Source: a virus. Taken from it: a DNA stretch of 37,605 bases. The first letter of the stretch is position 1. Every line of letters begins with the position of its first letter. The stretch lies in UHGV virus genome UHGV-0180039, one strand, 5' to 3'. A program made the position numbers and the translations under genes. The notes below the pieces were generated by a model. The model was not told the origin of the DNA. It saw only the letters and a program-made list of their open reading frames with translations, and made no database searches. This document shows, in pieces, positions 1 through 37,336 of the stretch.

Positions 1-2400
1 TTATTTTAATATCCATCCGGTATTTCCTGTTCCTGTTTTTTTTTGATACCAATCACCATTATAATCAATGTACATTGACCCCTGAGGTGCGGTCACAACA
101 CCCTCAGGTGAACCGGAGCCTCTATAAATTCCAAAGAGAGTTGTACCTCTTACTTTCTCGTATGCAAACAACAAACCATCTGAAGCCCTTCTGATACGCA
201 ACGGTTCGTGCTCTGAGTCCGATGCAAATGTAGTGGTGCCGTTTGAATCTGTTTCCCTGGAAAAACTTCCATTTGTTCTTGTTCCTTCAATGATCGAATT
301 TGGGTAGTTTGGATCATCAGATGAATGTAACCTAATATATGAACTATTTGATGCTGATACCCCCCTACCCCTTAAAATCAATCCCTTAAATGATGACGTA
401 AATAGTGCCTGGATTGAGCCATAAACAGTGTTATCACTACCGTTTTGCTGATCATATATTCTTAGTCTTGAGCTATTATCATACATAATAGCGTTGAAGT
501 ACTCACCAAGACGTTCGCTAAATGCAACAATATTAAAAGCATTGCGCCATCTAAATGATATATTTCGCCCGCTTTCTCCGGCATCTACACCTGCATTACT
601 TGAAGCATTGGTTATGCCAGAATTAAGGTTCTGCTCATCGTTGTTACCAGTCGCTGGTCGTATAGAGTAAATTGTCTTTTTCTCAAGAGAATAGCTACTT
701 CCCCATCCATAATCTGTATCAGGACTCCAGTCTCCAGAATTTGCATCCTTGGTTGTTTCCACCCAATAAGAGCCATTTGATGGAGGGACACCAATTATTC
801 CAGAAGTCTCAATAGATGATGCAGCCCATCTCCTTCCACGCCAGTTTACAATATTAGCTCCTTCCCTCCATGTTTCTATGCAGCTTATAATTATTTCTTC
901 ACCACGAATAGTTAGACCTTCCGGCTCAAATCTAGCTGGATTCCCAAGAGTTGGATGGTTAAGCAACCCATCGCGCCCATATTGCGACCTTGCATCATCG
1001 ATATCTAATTTTCTTAGTAAATTACCTGTTAAATCATATGTAAAGATATGATGCTTTCCAAAAGCATTAGTGCCTCCCTTAAGTATATGTATATATCTTC
1101 CATCAGACGCAATACCTTGTACAGAGTAAGCACCTTCAGAAGGGGAGTCGCTCATTTCCCATACAAACATTGGGGTTGCTAATGTTTTATCTTCAAGTTT
1201 ATCAATTGAGATTTTATCGTATATAAATACAATTCGTTTGGCGGCATCACTCTTTGGTGTATTAACCATTATTAAAAGACGACCGTCAGAAGAAATGGCA
1301 ATTCCTGCACGATTATAATCTTGAAATGGGTGGCCGCTACCAGTAGCCCCCCATACATTATAACTTTTTACGTCAGACTGAGTAGTTCCTGCTCCTCGCC
1401 AAGTTATTTTACTAAACCCTTTGCCTGCAGACTCCCCATCTTCACCTGAATTGGTTACACTTGATGTATATAAATATACTTGACCATTCTCCACCATTGC
1501 AGAAAGATCAAATCCGTGCCCAAGGTTTAATTCTGGAGAATACGCAACATGGTTTACTACCCTTCCATCATCATAAAGATTAAACTCAACAATACGAACT
1601 CTTTCTTTATCCGACCAGGTTGGCCCAACAGGCCGTTGTGTGACAAATAGTTTTTCAATGCCATTAACACGGCAATATGCGATCCCCTGTAACGCATTTC
1701 TGGCATTAGGATAAATTTCTGTGTTTGTTTCTCCCTGAAAACCAAAAAAAGGTTCCATCATTTTTCTCTGCGCAAGTTTGTCAGTTTCAAGTAGACGAGA
1801 AACGGAAATAAGAGAGCCATTATCTGCAACAATCCTCCCAATACCTCGAGCAGAAGATACATCAACTTCGAGAGTATTTACTGCAAAATCGCCATCAGGA
1901 ACAAACATTCTATAGCCTGCGTTAGAGAATGCCTCAGTAGCGTCAGTTATTCCATCACTGATAGCCCCCCAACCGCGAACATCTTTGTCATCACGCCATC
2001 GTGCAATCTGCAATTCGGGATATTTTTTAGCACCATCCGGGTCTTCTAACTGCTGCCGTAGCTGATCCGGGTCATACTTCAGCACATTATGGAAATAGAA
2101 CTGCTGAGTGCCATATGCATCATATACAGCCATAGAATGGCCTTGAACAGTTACGAATTTGGCAATCTGCCCGTTATATACCGGATATCCAGCAGCGTTA
2201 ATGATGATTGGTTGCGAAACAGGAACATGAGAGCCGTCTTCGTTCTCTACATAAACCTGAATCTGGTTTTCTGGACTTACCGGGTCAGTGTCAATTTTTC
2301 CGATATAAATTTTGCCGTTGGCTACTGCTTTAAAAGAACGCGCCATAGTGAAGAGTTGCGAAGGCATACTCACTACAACATTGGCTGTAATGTCTGTCAT
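1..2400 (-). CDS. Tailspike protein, 799 aa: P22 gp9-like N-terminal head-binding domain joined to a different receptor-binding domain
   Basis: First ~110 aa ([40 protein letters not shown]...[12 protein letters not shown]...VLKYDPDQ) match the P22 tailspike N-terminus from memory; the rest does not resemble the P22 beta-helix. Last gene of the late operon; stop codon is at window position 1-3. Confidence 0.85.
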
Positions 2401-4562: not shown

Positions 4563-5863
4563 TAATCACCCCATAGTGAAGAAAAATTACTGCCAGCAGG
4601 AGATTGTTGCCCTGGCGTATTCTGCACCGGCTCCTGGTAATCAAACTGTTTTTTAACAGTGCTCAACTTGCTTTCAAGCTGATTTCGAATCTTTCCGATA
4701 GAGTCACGAAAAGCCTTTTCACTCATTTTGGGACTTAGAGCACCAACCGCATCGGATAATTTTTTACCCTCAGCATCTGAAAGAGCCCCCATCCCCTTCA
4801 GGGACTGCACCATAGGGAGGAAAGTTTGAGCTTTAAAGGTGTCGAGTCTTGCTTCAAAGTTAGCCGCATCAGATCCAGGAACTGTCGGAAACGCTGAGCG
4901 AATACCAACTGCTTTTGAAAGTCCAGGGCTTTGCTCTATCTCGTTGAGAGAATCAAGCGCAGTGCTGAACGTATCAACAGCGCCCTGAGCGGCGGCCTGT
5001 CTGTCAGCACGAGCTATTTCAGCCTTTTGCCGAACATCTGCCTGTTTCTGCTTTAGCTCTTCAAGCTTTAACTGATTGCTTTCTCTGGCTATCTGTCTGT
5101 CCAGAGCCTTTTCTTGTAATTCTGCTCTTTGTATTTCGCGGGAAAGAGCAGCATTCTGTGCGCTGATGTTCTGGCCACGTATCTGGATGTCCTGACCTCG
5201 TGCTGTTAGTGCCTCGCCAGCCTGATTGCTGCGGATTGTCTCTGCCAGCCTACCTCGGTCAATCTCACGACCAGCCATCTTGTCCTGAACATTGAAGTAA
5301 TCAATCGGACCAAGAGCAGCCATCCCAAGGTGATCAACAAACTCACCAAATCCTGAAGGGTTCTGCTGATACATCTGAGCAACGCTGTTAGGGTCAACAC
5401 CGACGCGAGTCAGTTCCTTGGCGTTGTTTTGCAGCCATGATTGCATTGCTTCTGGAGACGAGGCCGCAAGGCGGGCACCAGCTGCTAAGGTGCCGATAGA
5501 ATTGCGCTGGTCTTCGTCTGCCCACTTCATACCAGACTGAATCTTCTCTAATTGACCAGGATATTTGGTCATCAGATCTCGAACCTGCTGCCGATCACCT
5601 GACTGGATGGCTGCCGCATATTCTTTTTGGAATGCAGCATCCGCTTCCTGTTGCTTTGCGGCTTGATATGTTTGAGCGACACTACCCAGTCCCTGCAACG
5701 CCTGAAGGCCGATGTTATTGCGACCTGAACGCTCCATTTCGTTGTTCTGGCGAATATAGGCCAACGCCTCACTTACATCACTTGCCTTTGGCGCATTTGA
5801 GTTTTGCCCACCGATACCAGCAAGAAAACCGCCTGAGTTGATTCCTTGTTTCCAAGTAGCCAT
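4562..5863 (-). CDS. Ejection protein, P22 gp20-like
   Basis: 433-aa ORF in the gp20 position, coiled-coil rich, overlaps the gp16 start. Confidence 0.75.
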   Translation of the reverse strand: MATWKQGINSGGFLAGIGGQNSNAPKASDVSEALAYIRQNNEMERSGRNNIGLQALQGLGSVAQTYQAAKQQEADAAFQKEYAAAIQSGDRQQVRDLMTKYPGQLEKIQSGMKWADEDQRNSIGTLAAGARLAASSPEAMQSWLQNNAKELTRVGVDPNSVAQMYQQNPSGFGEFVDHLGMAALGPIDYFNVQDKMAGREIDRGRLAETIRSNQAGEALTARGQDIQIRGQNISAQNAALSREIQRAELQEKALDRQIARESNQLKLEELKQKQADVRQKAEIARADRQAAAQGAVDTFSTALDSLNEIEQSPGLSKAVGIRSAFPTVPGSDAANFEARLDTFKAQTFLPMVQSLKGMGALSDAEGKKLSDAVGALSPKMSEKAFRDSIGKIRNQLESKLSTVKKQFDYQEPVQNTPGQQSPAGSNFSSLWGD

Positions 5864-14509: not shown

Positions 14510-15925
14510 TCAACCTACACCACAAGGAATTGAGTAACTGGAATAGTCTGGTTGCGCAACCGACTCCGGGCAATGCATACACATCATCAACGCATCAGCC
14601 AGGTTAGGAGATGGAATACCGAGCTTCTGCTTCATTTCGACCTTAGTCATTAGCTCCAGCTTCCCGTTGTTATTGAATTTGCGCTGAATCTGCGTCAGTT
14701 CTGCAAACAGTTTCTCCAGCATCTTCTCGCCTATCGCTTCTTTGTCGAAGCTCAGCATGTCGTCGGGGTCTGCATACTCACCGTGGACAACCGCCCGATA
14801 TGTCAGATACAGCCTGTCAGCCAGCGCGTAATAGAATTGCGCTCGCTTATTGCGGAATACATCGCCAATAGTGCGAACGTTGTCACCCTGTACGACTTCA
14901 TCAGCCCATGCTCCGGCCTGATACGGAGCATCTTCATCGAATGGCGATTCGCTGCCCTTGAACATCGTGGCGGTGATTTTCTTACCGGAGAACGCTTCCG
15001 TTGTCTGTCTGCGTAGCCCTGCACCGACACCATCGCCATCCCACAGGTAATGGTCAGCGCCGTCTTCAATCGCCAGCGAAGTAGCCCAGTCAGCACCCTC
15101 GTTGATGTCCATCAGCAGACCTTCGGCAATGCGCTTAACTACCGAACCGTGACGCGATGCATAACCTTTAGCATCTGGCCCTGTATCTGATGGGTCATGC
15201 GCAGAGACAACAGCGCCTTTCGCTTTCCATCCGAGTTTCTTGTGCGCATCGGTTGCGGCTTCAAGCCATTCACGTTTGATGATTGCCATATCACTTGCGC
15301 TTACTGGCTCACCAAGCCAGATGTGACGATACAGTGTCGGGTTTCTGCGTTTACACTCTTCCATCTCCAGACGGAGAACTTCAGGAAAGTGCGGGTTGTC
15401 GGTGTAGTTCACCGTCAGCAGACAAATATCATCGGGAGGGTTTACTACGAATCGCTGATAGGTATCGTCGAGGATGTTTTTCGGGTTGAAGCTCACCCAT
15501 ATTTCGGAAAATGGCTTGCGGATGGTTGGTATCAGGATATCCCATGATTCCTTCGTTACCGCTTCCGCTTCCTCCACCCAGCAGATATCAATGCCTTCGA
15601 GCGATTTAATCTTCGTCGGGTTGTTTTTGATGCCGTAGAACATGAACTCAGCATTCGTCCCGAGATGACGAATCATGGAACGCTGAATTTCAAACTCAGC
15701 CGTATACCCTTCACGCTCTATGGTGTCTTCAAGCAGCCGGATTACCGAATCGCTGATACTGTTTTGCAGTTCACGAGCGCAGAGAATACGCACTGGCTGC
15801 CGACGCGCCGCTTCAACAAGCAGTCTCGCAATTGCCCATGATTTACCGCTACCTCGACCGCCTTTGGCGACTTTGTAGCGATGCGCCTCAATGAACGGTT
15901 CAAAGATAGGATTAATCGAGGTCAT
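14510..15925 (-). CDS. Terminase large subunit
   Basis: 471 aa; Walker A-like GGRGSGKS near the N-terminus and a nuclease-type C-terminal half; sits between the small terminase and portal genes. Confidence 0.9.
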   Translation of the reverse strand: MTSINPIFEPFIEAHRYKVAKGGRGSGKSWAIARLLVEAARRQPVRILCARELQNSISDSVIRLLEDTIEREGYTAEFEIQRSMIRHLGTNAEFMFYGIKNNPTKIKSLEGIDICWVEEAEAVTKESWDILIPTIRKPFSEIWVSFNPKNILDDTYQRFVVNPPDDICLLTVNYTDNPHFPEVLRLEMEECKRRNPTLYRHIWLGEPVSASDMAIIKREWLEAATDAHKKLGWKAKGAVVSAHDPSDTGPDAKGYASRHGSVVKRIAEGLLMDINEGADWATSLAIEDGADHYLWDGDGVGAGLRRQTTEAFSGKKITATMFKGSESPFDEDAPYQAGAWADEVVQGDNVRTIGDVFRNKRAQFYYALADRLYLTYRAVVHGEYADPDDMLSFDKEAIGEKMLEKLFAELTQIQRKFNNNGKLELMTKVEMKQKLGIPSPNLADALMMCMHCPESVAQPDYSSYSIPCGVG

Positions 15926-16362
15926 TTTCCGAATAGAGTACTCATCGGTGATGTTTCAATCTGGATTGCGCCGCCGTCTTTGCCTGTTAGCTCGTGATCA
16001 ACCTTGTCGCGCCATTTATCCTTCTGTCGGTTCTTAAGCCAGAAGATGGCAGCTGTTGTATCAGGCGGGTAATACTTCTCAAGAGGAGTTTCGACAATTC
16101 TGTTTTCAATAACACGAATATCGATGTCTGGAGCCACGAAGCCCATAGCGCGTTGATAAAGACGGTCACTAACTTCTGCATCAGCGACGGCCTTACCCTT
16201 TTTTATGGACTCCGAAAACTCAGGATAATCAAGCTTCCACTTGTTAATAGTTGACTCACTGACTTCGAAGAAATCAGCAAGCTCTGCATCGGTGTAGCCC
16301 AGCAAGCACAGTTTGCGTGCCTGTTCGGCATACGCCTCTTGATACTTTGTTGGGCGCGCCAT
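15922..16362 (-). CDS. Terminase small subunit, Sf6 gp1-like
   Basis: 146 aa with an N-terminal HTH-like segment; C-terminus ...ELTGKDGGAIQIETSPMSTLFGK resembles Sf6 gp1 from memory; start overlaps the upstream gene. Confidence 0.75.
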   Translation of the reverse strand: MARPTKYQEAYAEQARKLCLLGYTDAELADFFEVSESTINKWKLDYPEFSESIKKGKAVADAEVSDRLYQRAMGFVAPDIDIRVIENRIVETPLEKYYPPDTTAAIFWLKNRQKDKWRDKVDHELTGKDGGAIQIETSPMSTLFGK

Positions 16363-16364
16363 GT

Positions 16365-16607
16365 TTATGCTCCGGTGGTGAACAGGTCTAACGCTTCCTT
16401 CGATTTACGCACCGCTTCGATAGTGCGGGTCGTGATATCTGAATTAGCGCCGCCTGACTGGAAGTGAATTTTGAATAGCTCAAGCTTCAGTTCGTCAGTG
16501 CCAATGAACTGAAATGCTTCCTCTGCGGCTGCGTTCTGGTTCATGACCAGCTTGTAAATCTCTAACTGGAATTTCTGTTCTTCAGTCATGGGAATAATCT
16601 CTGCCAT
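16365..16607 (-). CDS. Hypothetical 80-aa protein upstream of the terminase genes
   Basis: ATG with SD (ACGGAGCC) 8 nt upstream; stop lies 2 nt before the small terminase start. Confidence 0.5.
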   Translation of the reverse strand: MAEIIPMTEEQKFQLEIYKLVMNQNAAAEEAFQFIGTDELKLELFKIHFQSGGANSDITTRTIEAVRKSKEALDLFTTGA

Positions 16608-16934
16608 TGTTGGCTCCGTTTATCCGTTAAAAGGGATATCAGTTAAGTTATCCCGTGTAGGGTATAAGCCATTGTCGAGACCACTCATTGAATGGTCTCT
16701 GCAATAACCGATGTCTTTCCATCAGTCCGCCACCACAAAGAATCTTTTTTGCCATAAGGCAGGAGGTTCATCTTTCAGTGGCTGCCAGTGTTATTCCCCC
16801 ACTTACTGGCTTGGGTTGTATCGCTGTACTGCCGTTAATTAGTGACCAGAAATTAACTCCGGTTTCATTATCAAGCCCACCAGTAGATGGGCTTTGTAAT
16901 GAAGAGTTGTTATGAAAATTGCTCTAAACAAGCA

Positions 16935-17423
16935 TTAATAGCCATCAGAAGTAATCGCTACAGATTTCAATCCCTCAATGTCATCCTTGGACAGGGCGAA
17001 CCATTCACCGTGCTTTCTCTTTGCGGCAAATTTGCGATGAAGCATGTTTTCAGTTTCTCTTCCACCAGGGATCAGGCACTCAAGCTTCAAGCAGTCTGGT
17101 CCAGAGTTGCCAAGCGATTTGATGCGTTGTGGAATGTTGGATGAATACCCAATTTTGGTTAGCCCAGTTTTCTTCGATGACAAAACGTATACCTGAGGAG
17201 GTTCTTTTCTCTGGTCTTCCATTACACGTCTCATTGTTGCCATAAGTCCGCCGTGCATCAGCATTTCAACAAAGAACGCTGACCGAACACCTGACGACTT
17301 AAGCATGCCAGAAAATTCACTTGCCAATTCCATTAACTCTGCGATGTTTTCAGGAACTTTTTGGCAGTTATCTTCCTTGTATAAGGAAATCATTCTTTGA
17401 AGCTTTTCTTCTAATTGGTTCAT
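16935..17423 (-). CDS. T5orf172-domain (GIY-YIG-like) protein; moron between lysis and packaging genes
   Basis: C-terminal motifs VYVLSSKKTGLTKIGYSSNIPQRIKSL...HRKFAAKRKHGEWFAL fit the T5orf172 pattern. Track ORF begins with GTG at 17459; the ATG at 17423 with an upstream AAAGG is the more likely start. Confidence 0.65.
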   Translation of the reverse strand: MNQLEEKLQRMISLYKEDNCQKVPENIAELMELASEFSGMLKSSGVRSAFFVEMLMHGGLMATMRRVMEDQRKEPPQVYVLSSKKTGLTKIGYSSNIPQRIKSLGNSGPDCLKLECLIPGGRETENMLHRKFAAKRKHGEWFALSKDDIEGLKSVAITSDGY

Positions 17424-17572
17424 AGCGTCTTTACCTTTTAGAAAGTGAGCCTGTCTCACAGAAAAGCCGCCCCGAGATGGTCGCCACCATATACGGCAGT
17501 TCTCAGGCTCAACTTTCTGAAAGGCTCGGGTGATGTAATATGCGCGTGAGATGCGCTGTGAAATTCAGATGT

Positions 17573-17598
17573 AAAAAAAGCCCCGCATCGCGAGGCTC
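17573..17598 (-). terminator. Intrinsic terminator downstream of Rz/Rz1
   Basis: Minus-strand transcript reads GCCUCGC-GAU-GCGGGGC followed by UUUUUUU. Confidence 0.5.
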
Positions 17599-17628
17599 AT
17601 TAAATGGACTTTGTGATTTGCAAAAAAA

Positions 17629-18066
17629 TTATTTCAGGCACTGAGTCCTGATGTACTCCTGCAGGTAGTTAACCTGCGCGGTTATCTTGTCGATTCCACT
17701 TCGGAGACGGTAATAATTGAGTTCAGCATCTGCTGTAAGTCTTGGGCTTTCTCCATCGCCCATGCTGCTGGCTCCGGTCGTTGACTTTGCACAGGTGGCG
17801 GCGACTTGCAGGCGCTTACGCCCAGCAGAAACATCAGCACGAAGGCTTTCGATAGTAGCGTTAGCATCAGCAAGCTCCTTTGTGTATCTGGCGTCGAGTT
17901 CTGCTACATCACGTTGACGCTTCTGCATATCAGCGATGATGGATGTGGCTTTGTCGCGCTGGTCTTTATAGGCGATGGCGTTATCACGGTAATGATTAAC
18001 AGCTCATGACAGGCAGACGATGATGCAGATAACCAGAGCGGAAATAATCGCGGTTAACCTGCTCAT
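17629..18066 (-). pseudogene. Rz: Rz (i-spanin) interrupted by an in-frame TGA at codon 21
   Basis: ATG at 18066 overlaps the R stop (ATGA). Translation gives [20 protein letters not shown] then TGA at 18006..18004, where lambda has TGG (Trp); the frame then continues [13 protein letters not shown]... to a stop at 17629. Confidence 0.7.
17682..17873 (-). CDS. Rz1: Rz1 (o-spanin lipoprotein), embedded in the +1 frame of Rz
   Basis: 63 aa: signal peptide, lipobox-like VSAC, proline-rich mature part ([17 protein letters not shown]); lies entirely within the Rz reading frame. Confidence 0.7.
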
Positions 18067-18539
18067 ACCTCAATCTCTCTGACCGTTCCGCCTGCTTCTT
18101 TGAATTTTGCAATCAGGTTGTCAGCCTTATGCTCGAACTGCCCATAACCAGCCCCCGGCAGTGAAGCCCAGATGTTGCTGCAACGGTCGATAGCCTGACG
18201 GATATCACCGCGATCAATCATCGGCAAAGCGCCACGTTCCTTAATCTGCTGCAATGCCACAGCGTCCTGGCTTTTCGGAGAGAAATCTTTCAGGCCAAGC
18301 TGCTTACGATAGGCATCCCACCAACGGGAAAGAAGCTGATAGCGACCGGCTGCTGTTGATTTGAGTTTTGGGTTTAGCGTGACAAGTTTGCGAGGGTGAT
18401 CGGAGTAATCAGTGAATAGCTCTCCGCCAACAATGACGTCATAACCATGATTTCTGGTTTTCTGACGTCCGTTATCAGTTCCCTCTGACCACGCCAGCAT
18501 ATCGAGGAACGCCTTACGTTGATTATTGATTTCCACCAT
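18063..18539 (-). CDS. R: Endolysin R (lytic transglycosylase)
   Basis: 158 aa, essentially identical to lambda R from memory ([51 protein letters not shown]...). Confidence 0.95.
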
Positions 18540-18846
18540 CTTCTACTCCGGCTTTTTTAGCAGCGAAGCGTTTGATAAGCGAACCAATCGAGTCAGTACC
18601 GATGTAGCCGATAAACACGCTCGTTATATAAGCGAGGTTGCTACTTAGTCCGGCGAAGTCGAGAAGGTCACGAATGAACCAGGCGATAATGGCGCACATC
18701 GTTGCGTCGATTACTGTTTTTGTAAACGCACCGCCATTATATCTGCCGCGAAGGTACGCCATTGCAAACGCAAGTATTGCCCCGATGCCTTGTTCCTTTG
18801 CCGCGAGAATGGCGGCTAACAGGTCATGTTTTTCTGGCATCTTCAT
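18523..18846 (-). CDS. S: Holin/antiholin S (S107/S105 dual start)
   Basis: 107 aa, essentially identical to lambda S ([43 protein letters not shown]...); Met1-Lys2-Met3 dual-start motif present. Confidence 0.95.
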
Positions 18847-19242
18847 GTCTTACCCCCAATAAGGGGATTTGCTCTATTTAATTAGGAATAAGGTCGATTA
18901 CTGATAGAACAAATCCAGGCTACTGTGTTTAGTAATCAGATTTGTTCGTGACCGATATGCACGGGCAAAACGGCAGGAGGTTGTTAGCGCAGCCTCTTGC
19001 CACCCGCTTTCACGAAGGTCATGTGTAGAAGGCCGCAGCGTAACTATCACTGATGAATTCAGGATAGCCAGTGGCTACGGCTCAGTTTGGGTTGTGCTGT
19101 TGCTGGGCGGCGATGACGCCTGTACGCATTTGATGATCCGGTTCTGCTTCCGGTATTCGCTTAATTCAGCACAACGGAAAGAGCACTCAATGCATTTAAA
19201 CCAAGCCCCATAAAGGAGAATGCTCTTACCTGTTGCACAGAT

Positions 19243-19302
19243 ATAAAAAATCCCGAAACAGTTATGCAGGCTCTAACTATTACCTGCGAACTGTTTCGGG
19301 AT
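19243..19302 (-). terminator. tR'-like intrinsic terminator ending the 6S transcript
   Basis: Minus-strand AUCCCGAAACAGUU ... AACUGUUUCGGGAU stem followed by UUUUUUA; matches the lambda tR' region from memory. Confidence 0.7.
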
Positions 19303-19514: not shown

Positions 19515-20138
19515 CTAACGTGTGACCGCATTCAAAATGTTGTCTGCGATTGACTCTTCTTTGTGGCATTGCACCACCAGAGCGTCATACAGCGGCTTAA
19601 CAGTGCGTGACCAGGTGGGTTGGGTAAGATTTGGGATTAGCATCGTCACAGCGCGATATGCGGCGCTTGCTGGCATCCTTGAATAGCCGACACCTTTGCA
19701 TCTTCCGCATTCTTTCTCAACAACTCTCCCCCACTGCTCTGTTTTTGCTATATCAACCGCACGGCCTGTACCGTGACAATCTCTGCATCTTGCGCCCGGC
19801 GTCGCGGCACTACGGCAATAATCCGCATAAGCGAATGTTGCGAGCACTTGCAGTACCTTTGCCTTAGTATTTCCTTCGAGCTTTGCCACACCACGGTATT
19901 TCCCCGATACCTTGTGTGCAAATTGCATCAGATAGTTGATAGCCTTTTGTTTGTCGTTCTGGCTGAGTTCATGCTTACCGCAGAATGCAGCCATTCCGAA
20001 TCCGGCTTGTGATTGCGCCATCCCCATAGCAGCCATCACATCAGTACCGGAAAGAGAGTCAGAAGCCGTAGCCCGTGGTGAGTCGCTCATCATCGGGCTT
20101 TTTGGCGAATGAAATTTAGCTACGCTTTCGAGTCTCAT
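19515..20138 (-). CDS. Q: Late antiterminator Q (lambda type)
   Basis: 207 aa, essentially identical to lambda Q from memory (MRLESVAKFHSPKSPMMSDSPRATASDSLSGTDVMAAMGMAQSQAGFGMAAF...ESIADNILNAVTR). Confidence 0.95.
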   Translation of the reverse strand: MRLESVAKFHSPKSPMMSDSPRATASDSLSGTDVMAAMGMAQSQAGFGMAAFCGKHELSQNDKQKAINYLMQFAHKVSGKYRGVAKLEGNTKAKVLQVLATFAYADYCRSAATPGARCRDCHGTGRAVDIAKTEQWGRVVEKECGRCKGVGYSRMPASAAYRAVTMLIPNLTQPTWSRTVKPLYDALVVQCHKEESIADNILNAVTR

Positions 20139-36991: not shown

Positions 36992-37336
36992 ATGTCAGAT
37001 TTGGCTATGAAGGTTTTGAAATGGCAATCGACTGGCGATGTCGGCATCAGTAGCGCAACTCTTGCCTCAATCGCATGTGGCCTGAAAAAGAATATCTATG
37101 GTCATCACTTCGGCGCTCCACATGACGCAGCAGATTTCCGACGATGCGTTGCACTTGTTGAGCAGATTCCAGAAATCAGAGATTCATTCGACAAGGTTGC
37201 AAAGCGCGTTCCGGCATTCAAAGGAATCCTCAACGAATGGGATTCACTCGTTGCTCTGTTGAAGTCTGAAATGAAGATACACGGAAACAAAGCACCAGAG
37301 ACTTACAGAAGAATCAGCGAGCTACGCAAGGACTAA
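36992..37336 (+). CDS. Hypothetical 114-aa protein
   Basis: Track ORF starts at 36965 inside the terminator hairpin; in-frame ATG at 36992 with GGAGA SD is more plausible. Confidence 0.45.
   Translation: MSDLAMKVLKWQSTGDVGISSATLASIACGLKKNIYGHHFGAPHDAADFRRCVALVEQIPEIRDSFDKVAKRVPAFKGILNEWDSLVALLKSEMKIHGNKAPETYRRISELRKD

Follow-up and report, generated by a model that had tools for sequence, protein, structure and literature searches.

We identified a recent, spontaneous G-to-A opal nonsense mutation in the i-spanin gene Rz of an otherwise intact, excision-competent P22-like phage. We consider it about three-quarters probable that this lesion arose and persists as a null or severely hypomorphic allele carried by lysogeny. 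The window (the whole stretch of DNA that was analysed, 37,605 nt) belongs to a P22-like, lambdoid temperate phage of E. coli, with genes for portal, coat, tail needle, ejection proteins and tailspike, and an early and nin region like that of lambda. Rz belongs to the type II inner-membrane proteins; its periplasmic coiled coils bind the outer-membrane lipoprotein Rz1, and loss of either spanin subunit blocks the final step of lysis. The features of the lysis region, in window coordinates, are as follows.

17570..17598, minus strand: intrinsic-terminator-like hairpin and T run, directly after Rz
17629..18066, minus strand: Rz i-spanin gene, 145 codons with an opal stop at codon 21; PF03245 match for the intact or read-through version
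17629..17928, minus strand: residual ORF from Met47, 99 aa, periplasmic domain without anchor; called by some gene callers
17682..17867, minus strand: o-spanin lipoprotein Rz1 (61 aa), encoded within Rz in its +1 frame (offset 199); PF06085, 72.6 bits
17875..17880, minus strand: Shine-Dalgarno AAGGAG, 7 nt 5' of the Rz1 ATG, read from the sequence
18004..18006, minus strand: opal TGA in place of Trp21 (TGG), context UCA UGA G; sole base of the lysis cassette differing from E. coli 22KM0354
18007..18066, minus strand: Rz codons 1-20, almost the entire transmembrane anchor (20-aa ORF listed as 18004..18066)
18063..18539, minus strand: intact endolysin R (158 aa), a transglycosylase of lambda type; protein 100% identical to that of 22KM0354
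18523..18846, minus strand: holin S, lambda family, 107 aa, intact; PF05106, 105.3 bits; 100% identical to the 22KM0354 protein
19515..20138, minus strand: Q, the 207-aa late antiterminator, 5' of the lysis cassette; PF03589 (Antiterm)

The Rz ATG lies at 18066 and overlaps the stop codon of endolysin R (ATGA). Reading of the minus strand and alignment to lambda (NC_001416) bore out the first-pass annotation, which had reported a TGA at codon 21 (18006..18004) where lambda has TGG, followed by a normal frame; 124 further codons remain open in the Rz frame, up to a TAA at 17631..17629. The translation of the intact allele, which differs only at residue 21, scored 125.6 bits (cut-off 25.4) with the Pfam family PF03245 (Phage_lysis). 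The stop splits the N-terminal anchor (residues 1-20) from the periplasmic coiled-coil domain, as had been proposed, and the 20-residue peptide is the sole product of the normal Rz ATG when termination occurs. The single unbroken polypeptide of anchor and periplasmic domain that characterises this type II inner-membrane protein family is not encoded. We found no functional Rz start downstream of the stop, a possibility that had also been raised: the earliest in-frame start past the TGA in the ORF listing, and the sole candidate, is Met47 (17928), which was rejected for want of an anchor. A product begun there would remain in the cytoplasm, as it has neither anchor nor signal. Rz in this phage is a disrupted member of the lambda-type two-component spanin family.

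The remainder of the lysis cassette is complete. Its minus-strand order is Q, S, R, Rz/Rz1 and terminator, which places the spanin genes after holin and endolysin in a Q-dependent late operon, as in lambda-type spanins. Other family traits identified were the PF03245 homology, an Rz1 embedded in the +1 frame with a lipobox cysteine, and periplasmic cysteines for intermolecular disulfides (the equivalents of lambda Rz Cys99 and Cys152). The embedded Rz1 had been described as intact, and we agree: its 61-aa ORF matches PF06085, has a lipobox (VSAC) whose cysteine aligns to lambda Cys20, and is identical in DNA sequence to that of 22KM0354. It is preceded by its own Shine-Dalgarno sequence, so that its translation should be independent of that of Rz. 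The RefSeq name for endolysin R is glycoside hydrolase family 104, and a terminator is annotated at the homologous place in several HK97-like phage records. Directly after the Rz terminator we noted a GIY-YIG / T5orf172 gene (PF10544, PF13455; window 16935-17459, minus strand). The exact 174-aa GIY-YIG protein is recorded in 2650 blocks of the collection, always just downstream of Rz, in phages as unlike as lambda-like siphovirus and P22-like podovirus prophages, whose types of holin and endolysin vary. The gene looks like a mobile, homing-endonuclease-like cassette targeting the Rz junction.

We considered whether the TGA might have come from faulty sequencing or assembly of the source record, with G as the correct base, as the first-pass annotation had allowed. 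In favour of this, the change is a single-base difference from the closest complete genome, and the TGA allele is absent from IMG/VR, GTDB representative genomes and JGI metagenomes. However, the identical TGA was reproduced in at least 12 fetched loci, from MEGAHIT (k141), SPAdes and Logan assemblies, in integrated and circular contexts alike. All fetched contigs carrying the 99-aa ORF were 100% identical to the window and had TGA, and these derive from several samples and runs. An integrated prophage in a 544-kb chromosomal contig (ERZ989652), found via the lineage-specific coat protein, matches the window at 100% identity across 17.2 kb and carries the TGA, as does a sub-haplotype with two extra SNPs, one of them synonymous in Rz and lying 2 nt ahead of the Rz1 ATG. 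Several of the assemblies may have been made from the data of a single project, making the independent sources fewer than the contigs, yet more than one sample, run and submission is represented. The same change is also found, apparently independently, in the finished genome of E. coli strain PK5. The recurrence of the TGA across assemblers, samples and two haplotypes makes an error extremely improbable, and we exclude it.

The TGA is a recent, derived G-to-A transition, as judged from single-base differences between the window and its TGG relatives. Over the lysis cassette (S, R, Rz and terminator; 1341 bp), exactly one base separates the window from E. coli 22KM0354, at the third position of codon 21. 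The closest TGG sequence among public assemblies, L148, has 4 mismatches in 12,083 bases, one of which is the codon 21 base. The comparison with related prophages that had been suggested thus showed TGG in the nearest relatives. Searching complete E. coli genomes with a 33-mer around codon 21, we found the TGG version at 4783 places in 3181 genomes and the TGA version at one; a TAG control at the same codon gave no matches in these genomes. The TGA allele was likewise found in none of the IMG/VR sequences, against at least 120 copies of TGG, in none of the GTDB representative genomes (one genome per species), and in none of the JGI metagenomes.

The lone other TGA is that of strain PK5 (NZ_CP074024.1, KFU66_RS07105), which is labelled by PGAP as a lysis protein with an internal stop. 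This pseudogene shares the TGG-to-TGA change at codon 21, a lambda-type S-R-Rz cassette and a P22-like prophage setting with the window, but its Rz allele is distinct, differing at 17 further positions in 438 nt, and is followed by a KilA-N gene where the window has GIY-YIG. The closest differences flanking the mutated base lie 12 nt upstream and 36 nt downstream. From these alignments, independent recurrence of the TGA in PK5 appears likelier than shared descent; the latter was rejected on the 17 other differences and on the conversion tract of less than 48 nt that it would need. Recurrence is unsurprising, because among the 53 single-base changes that could create a stop in Rz just 10 are transitions, and two of these fall at codon 21. 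The allele is of a known kind, a lysis gene with an internal stop such as annotation pipelines already flag, and involves no new mechanism.

The 99-aa ORF is on record on 24 contigs, compared to 316 for the otherwise identical, intact 145-aa protein. We noted that the broken Rz is annotated inconsistently, either as a 99-aa 'Phage_lysis' fragment from Met47 (L006 3001-3300) or by Rz1 alone (L154 1441-1626), and counts by either protein consequently understate the frequency of the TGA allele. Gene-caller fragments of this kind at a broken Rz can inflate apparent protein diversity.

Apart from Rz, the phage is intact. The closest complete genome is the prophage of E. coli 22KM0354, with approximately 99.1-99.5% identity over most of the window; among the 22KM0354 proteins that align over their full length (about 50 genes compared), all are stop-free in the window except Rz. 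The two phages differ in some modules. The window's tailspike (799 aa; window 1-2400, minus strand, and 2060-2417) matches that of the relative only in the N-terminal head-binding domain (approximately 83% over 137 aa), a receptor-binding module swap of the kind usual in P22-like phages. The window lacks an Arc-like gene that the relative has, and a small early-left gene without stops in the window (36992-37333, plus strand) is a RefSeq pseudogene with an internal stop in 22KM0354 (L004 40744-41094). The window's phage occupies a site adjacent to dacC (L141 17372-18134) and has a 392-aa integrase, encoded outside the window, whereas the 99%-identical relative lies between ybhB and ybhC (L004 1042-1518, 42607-43890) with a different integrase. 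The integration module looks to have been exchanged.

The phage was observed both integrated and with its ends joined. In one locus (L141) the right prophage end is joined to host DNA beside dacC, and in another (L142) that phage end continues into the integrase side of the phage. The sequences of the two loci agree as far as a single point and part there, and so represent the attR and attP junctions, respectively. The segment between the two ends of the window that is missing from it measures 3,399 bp, giving a genome of 41,004 bp (37,605 + 3,399). Subtracting k from the lengths of two kinds of contig (41,145 bp, k = 141; 41,059 bp, presumably k = 55) leaves this value each time (41,145 - 141 = 41,059 - 55 = 41,004), and contigs of equal length are opened at various points, the breaks falling within the portal gene, within NinB or ahead of the small terminase gene. 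Taken together, the agreement in length, the varied rotation and the attP junction indicate that these contigs are closed circular assemblies, and hence that excised, replicating or packaged DNA of the TGA phage is present. Excision of the TGA phage thus still occurs, and probably replication also, as judged from the attP junction and the circles. The contig that holds the attP junction (ERZ17931387 NODE_68, 117,408 bp; locus 15864-19262) has it internally and is approximately 2.9 genome lengths long; this implies more than one phage copy in a row, which could be a tandem lysogen, a replication concatemer or an assembly artefact.

These observations bear on whether the stop marks the first visible step of domestication or decay, in a defective, vertically inherited prophage whose lysis function faces relaxed or negative selection. 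E. coli genomes do contain Rz pseudogenes broken by an internal stop, as in PK5, and the integrated TGA copy in the 544-kb chromosomal contig would fit such a history. However, we found no other lesion in the approximately 50 genes compared to the closest relative, where a decayed prophage has multiple lesions or deletions in essential genes, and the attP junction and closed circles show that excision, and probably replication, persist. An advantage to the host is not obvious either, because holin and endolysin are intact and loss of the spanin spares no induced cell. Prophage decay, which the first-pass annotation had offered as a possibility, is accordingly unsupported, and we regard it as quite improbable.

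We investigated whether the UGA might be decoded. The earlier suggestion that reading of UGA as Trp would restore the wild-type residue holds, in that the lambda alignment has Trp at this position. Programmed recoding, by selenocysteine insertion or a phage-encoded opal suppressor, has the in-frame UGA in its favour and nothing more. ARAGORN identified no tRNA genes in the window or in L141 or L142, both of which pass the tailspike end of the window and one of which covers the rest of the genome; no Rfam family, SECIS included, reached threshold; and the downstream RNA fold is no stabler than shuffled sequence (z -0.21). Conservation among relatives is lacking, near-identical ones encoding TGG, and the stop is accompanied by no stimulatory structure, SECIS or suppressor tRNA. 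The tRNA, Rfam and hairpin results lead us to reject programmed recoding, which retains a vanishingly small probability.

Incidental read-through by tRNA-Trp is a different matter. Of the stop codons, UGA is the leakiest in E. coli; the residue chiefly inserted at it is Trp, and a G after the stop, as is present here, lowers termination accuracy (PMC11126739). Read-through of UGA in K-12 averages approximately 0.5% at 37 C and approximately 7% at 18 C (PMC11126739), although these figures probably overestimate read-through in wild strains, because the K-12 RF2 is unusually weak (PMC11126739). Such leakage could be sufficient for outer-membrane disruption, perhaps delayed or stronger when cold, and the allele would then entail no practical lysis defect. 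The UGA-G context and the temperature dependence noted above are compatible with this, as is the exact wild-type sequence that Trp insertion yields. Moreover, position 21 lies in a replaceable anchor (PMC5295617), and natural full-length Rz alleles with Leu (TTG) at this position were identified in two E. coli genomes (L146 and L150; AP027500.1 and AP027748.1), indicating that residue 21 is not essential and the position is permissive. The allele is also present in an apparently active phage, in circular assemblies and in two haplotypes. Against this, typical read-through at 37 C is well below 1%, a value that itself comes from K-12 with its weak RF2; the stop is unconserved, occupying one of 4784 places in complete genomes and absent from IMG/VR in the face of the TGG copies there; and there is no stimulatory structure. 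We therefore judge a tolerated, practically lysis-proficient allele to be unlikely, though by no means negligible. A stronger form of the idea, in which the opal codon is a tolerated or even favoured attenuator that makes outer-membrane rupture conditional or delayed, is very improbable. If true, the attenuator would show stronger read-through at low temperature, under nutrient limitation and with G after the stop, and a natural P22-like lineage would be circulating with a leaky spanin and with virion release that differs inside and outside the gut.

A null or severely hypomorphic allele therefore remains our preferred reading. We propose that the G-to-A change, in turning Trp21 (TGG) into an opal stop in a 41,004-bp temperate phage that integrates next to dacC, would cause most translation from the Rz ATG to stop after 20 residues, giving a short membrane peptide unable to reach Rz1. 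The periplasmic coiled-coil domain, needed to bridge to Rz1, would not be made in exportable form, while holin, endolysin and Rz1 would still be produced. Given Q antitermination of late transcription, little polarity is to be expected on Rz1 or on the head genes downstream. Induced cells would have their inner membrane and cell wall breached, but disruption of the outer membrane would fail or be much weakened. The expected outcome is fragile spherical cells, from which phage would be released only by mechanical stress or where the outer membrane is weak. Spanin knockouts do yield spherical cells with the outer membrane still intact (PMC6139136; PMC10865782), and in shaken flasks they are lysis-defective only in the presence of added divalent cations at millimolar concentration (PMC6139136; PMC10865782).

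Data from lambda point the same way. Nonsense mutations at 34 positions across the periplasmic domain of lambda Rz are lysis-defective (PMC5295617), and engineered stops at codons 151 and 152 are likewise lysis-defective (PMC5295617). By analogy with these data, a stop at codon 21 should abolish the i-spanin. Some considerations argue against a complete null. The closed circles in several samples, and the survival of the allele long enough to give two haplotypes, would be easier to explain if function were not fully lost, and the UGA-G context with Trp insertion, for which the K-12 levels are cited above (PMC11126739), should provide some product. In our reading, decoding of the UGA by tRNA-Trp on a small fraction of ribosomes would leave a trace of genuine wild-type Rz, with the allele persisting mainly by vertical inheritance of the prophage with its host.

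Co-resident prophages commonly have Rz/Rz1 copies of their own, and these could also complement in trans. Among E. coli genomes that have any Rz-like place, the median number is 2 and the maximum 9, and many of these sequences are more than 95% identical to the window allele. Co-resident lambdoid prophages, induced by the same SOS signal, might on this basis supply a compatible Rz and mask the defect. Such masking would require simultaneous late-gene expression and a matching Rz-Rz1 C-terminal interface (PMC5295617), however, and would be of no help after infection of a host without such prophages. We consider it unlikely that the defect is masked in this way.

As a sporadic nonsense mutation in a well-understood lysis gene, the allele is mostly of little import. 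It does provide a natural i-spanin nonsense allele in an otherwise intact phage, found in integrated and circular form, and comparison with an isogenic TGG revertant could probe the need for spanins outside shaken flasks.

Finally, we compared the allele with known systems. It resembles the Rz/Rz1 pair of lambda, and the HK97- and P22-like alleles including gene 15 of P22, in lying directly after holin and endolysin in the late operon and in having an embedded Rz1. The Rz protein is 60-61% identical to lambda Rz, with a length of 145 aa compared to 153 aa, and its first 31 residues equal those of lambda Rz apart from V4L and position 21, where lambda has Trp and the window an opal stop. The alignment shows that the equivalents of lambda Rz Cys99 and Cys152 are conserved, and that Rz1 is without an equivalent of lambda Rz1 Cys29; a single such cysteine is enough in lambda (PMC6139136). 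Unlike in lambda, anchor and periplasmic domain are not encoded as a single polypeptide. The lambda transmembrane domain (residues 1-24) has only an anchoring role, for which an artificial transmembrane domain can substitute (PMC5295617).

Laboratory nonsense alleles of Rz (lambda900 Rzam and those of the screen of Cahill et al. 2017, PMC5295617) likewise combine premature Rz stops with an intact Rz1, and they define the phenotype to be expected here, a block at the outer-membrane stage of lysis with spherical cells. These were made or selected in the laboratory, and the nonsense alleles reported from the lambda screen lie in the periplasmic domain only (PMC5295617), whereas the allele described here is natural and lies inside the anchor. 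The analogy with that screen is thus indirect for a stop within the anchor, which tempers the null reading. The present allele further differs from the laboratory ones in being an opal codon at a Trp position, such that read-through regenerates the wild type.

Read-through of UGA is reportedly used to make the A1 protein of Qbeta. In E. coli, tRNA-Trp reads UGA at low frequency, and more readily ahead of a G, as in the present context (PMC11126739). In contrast to programmed read-through, the stop is unconserved, has no downstream extension to express and no stimulatory element, and any read-through of the Rz opal codon is incidental.
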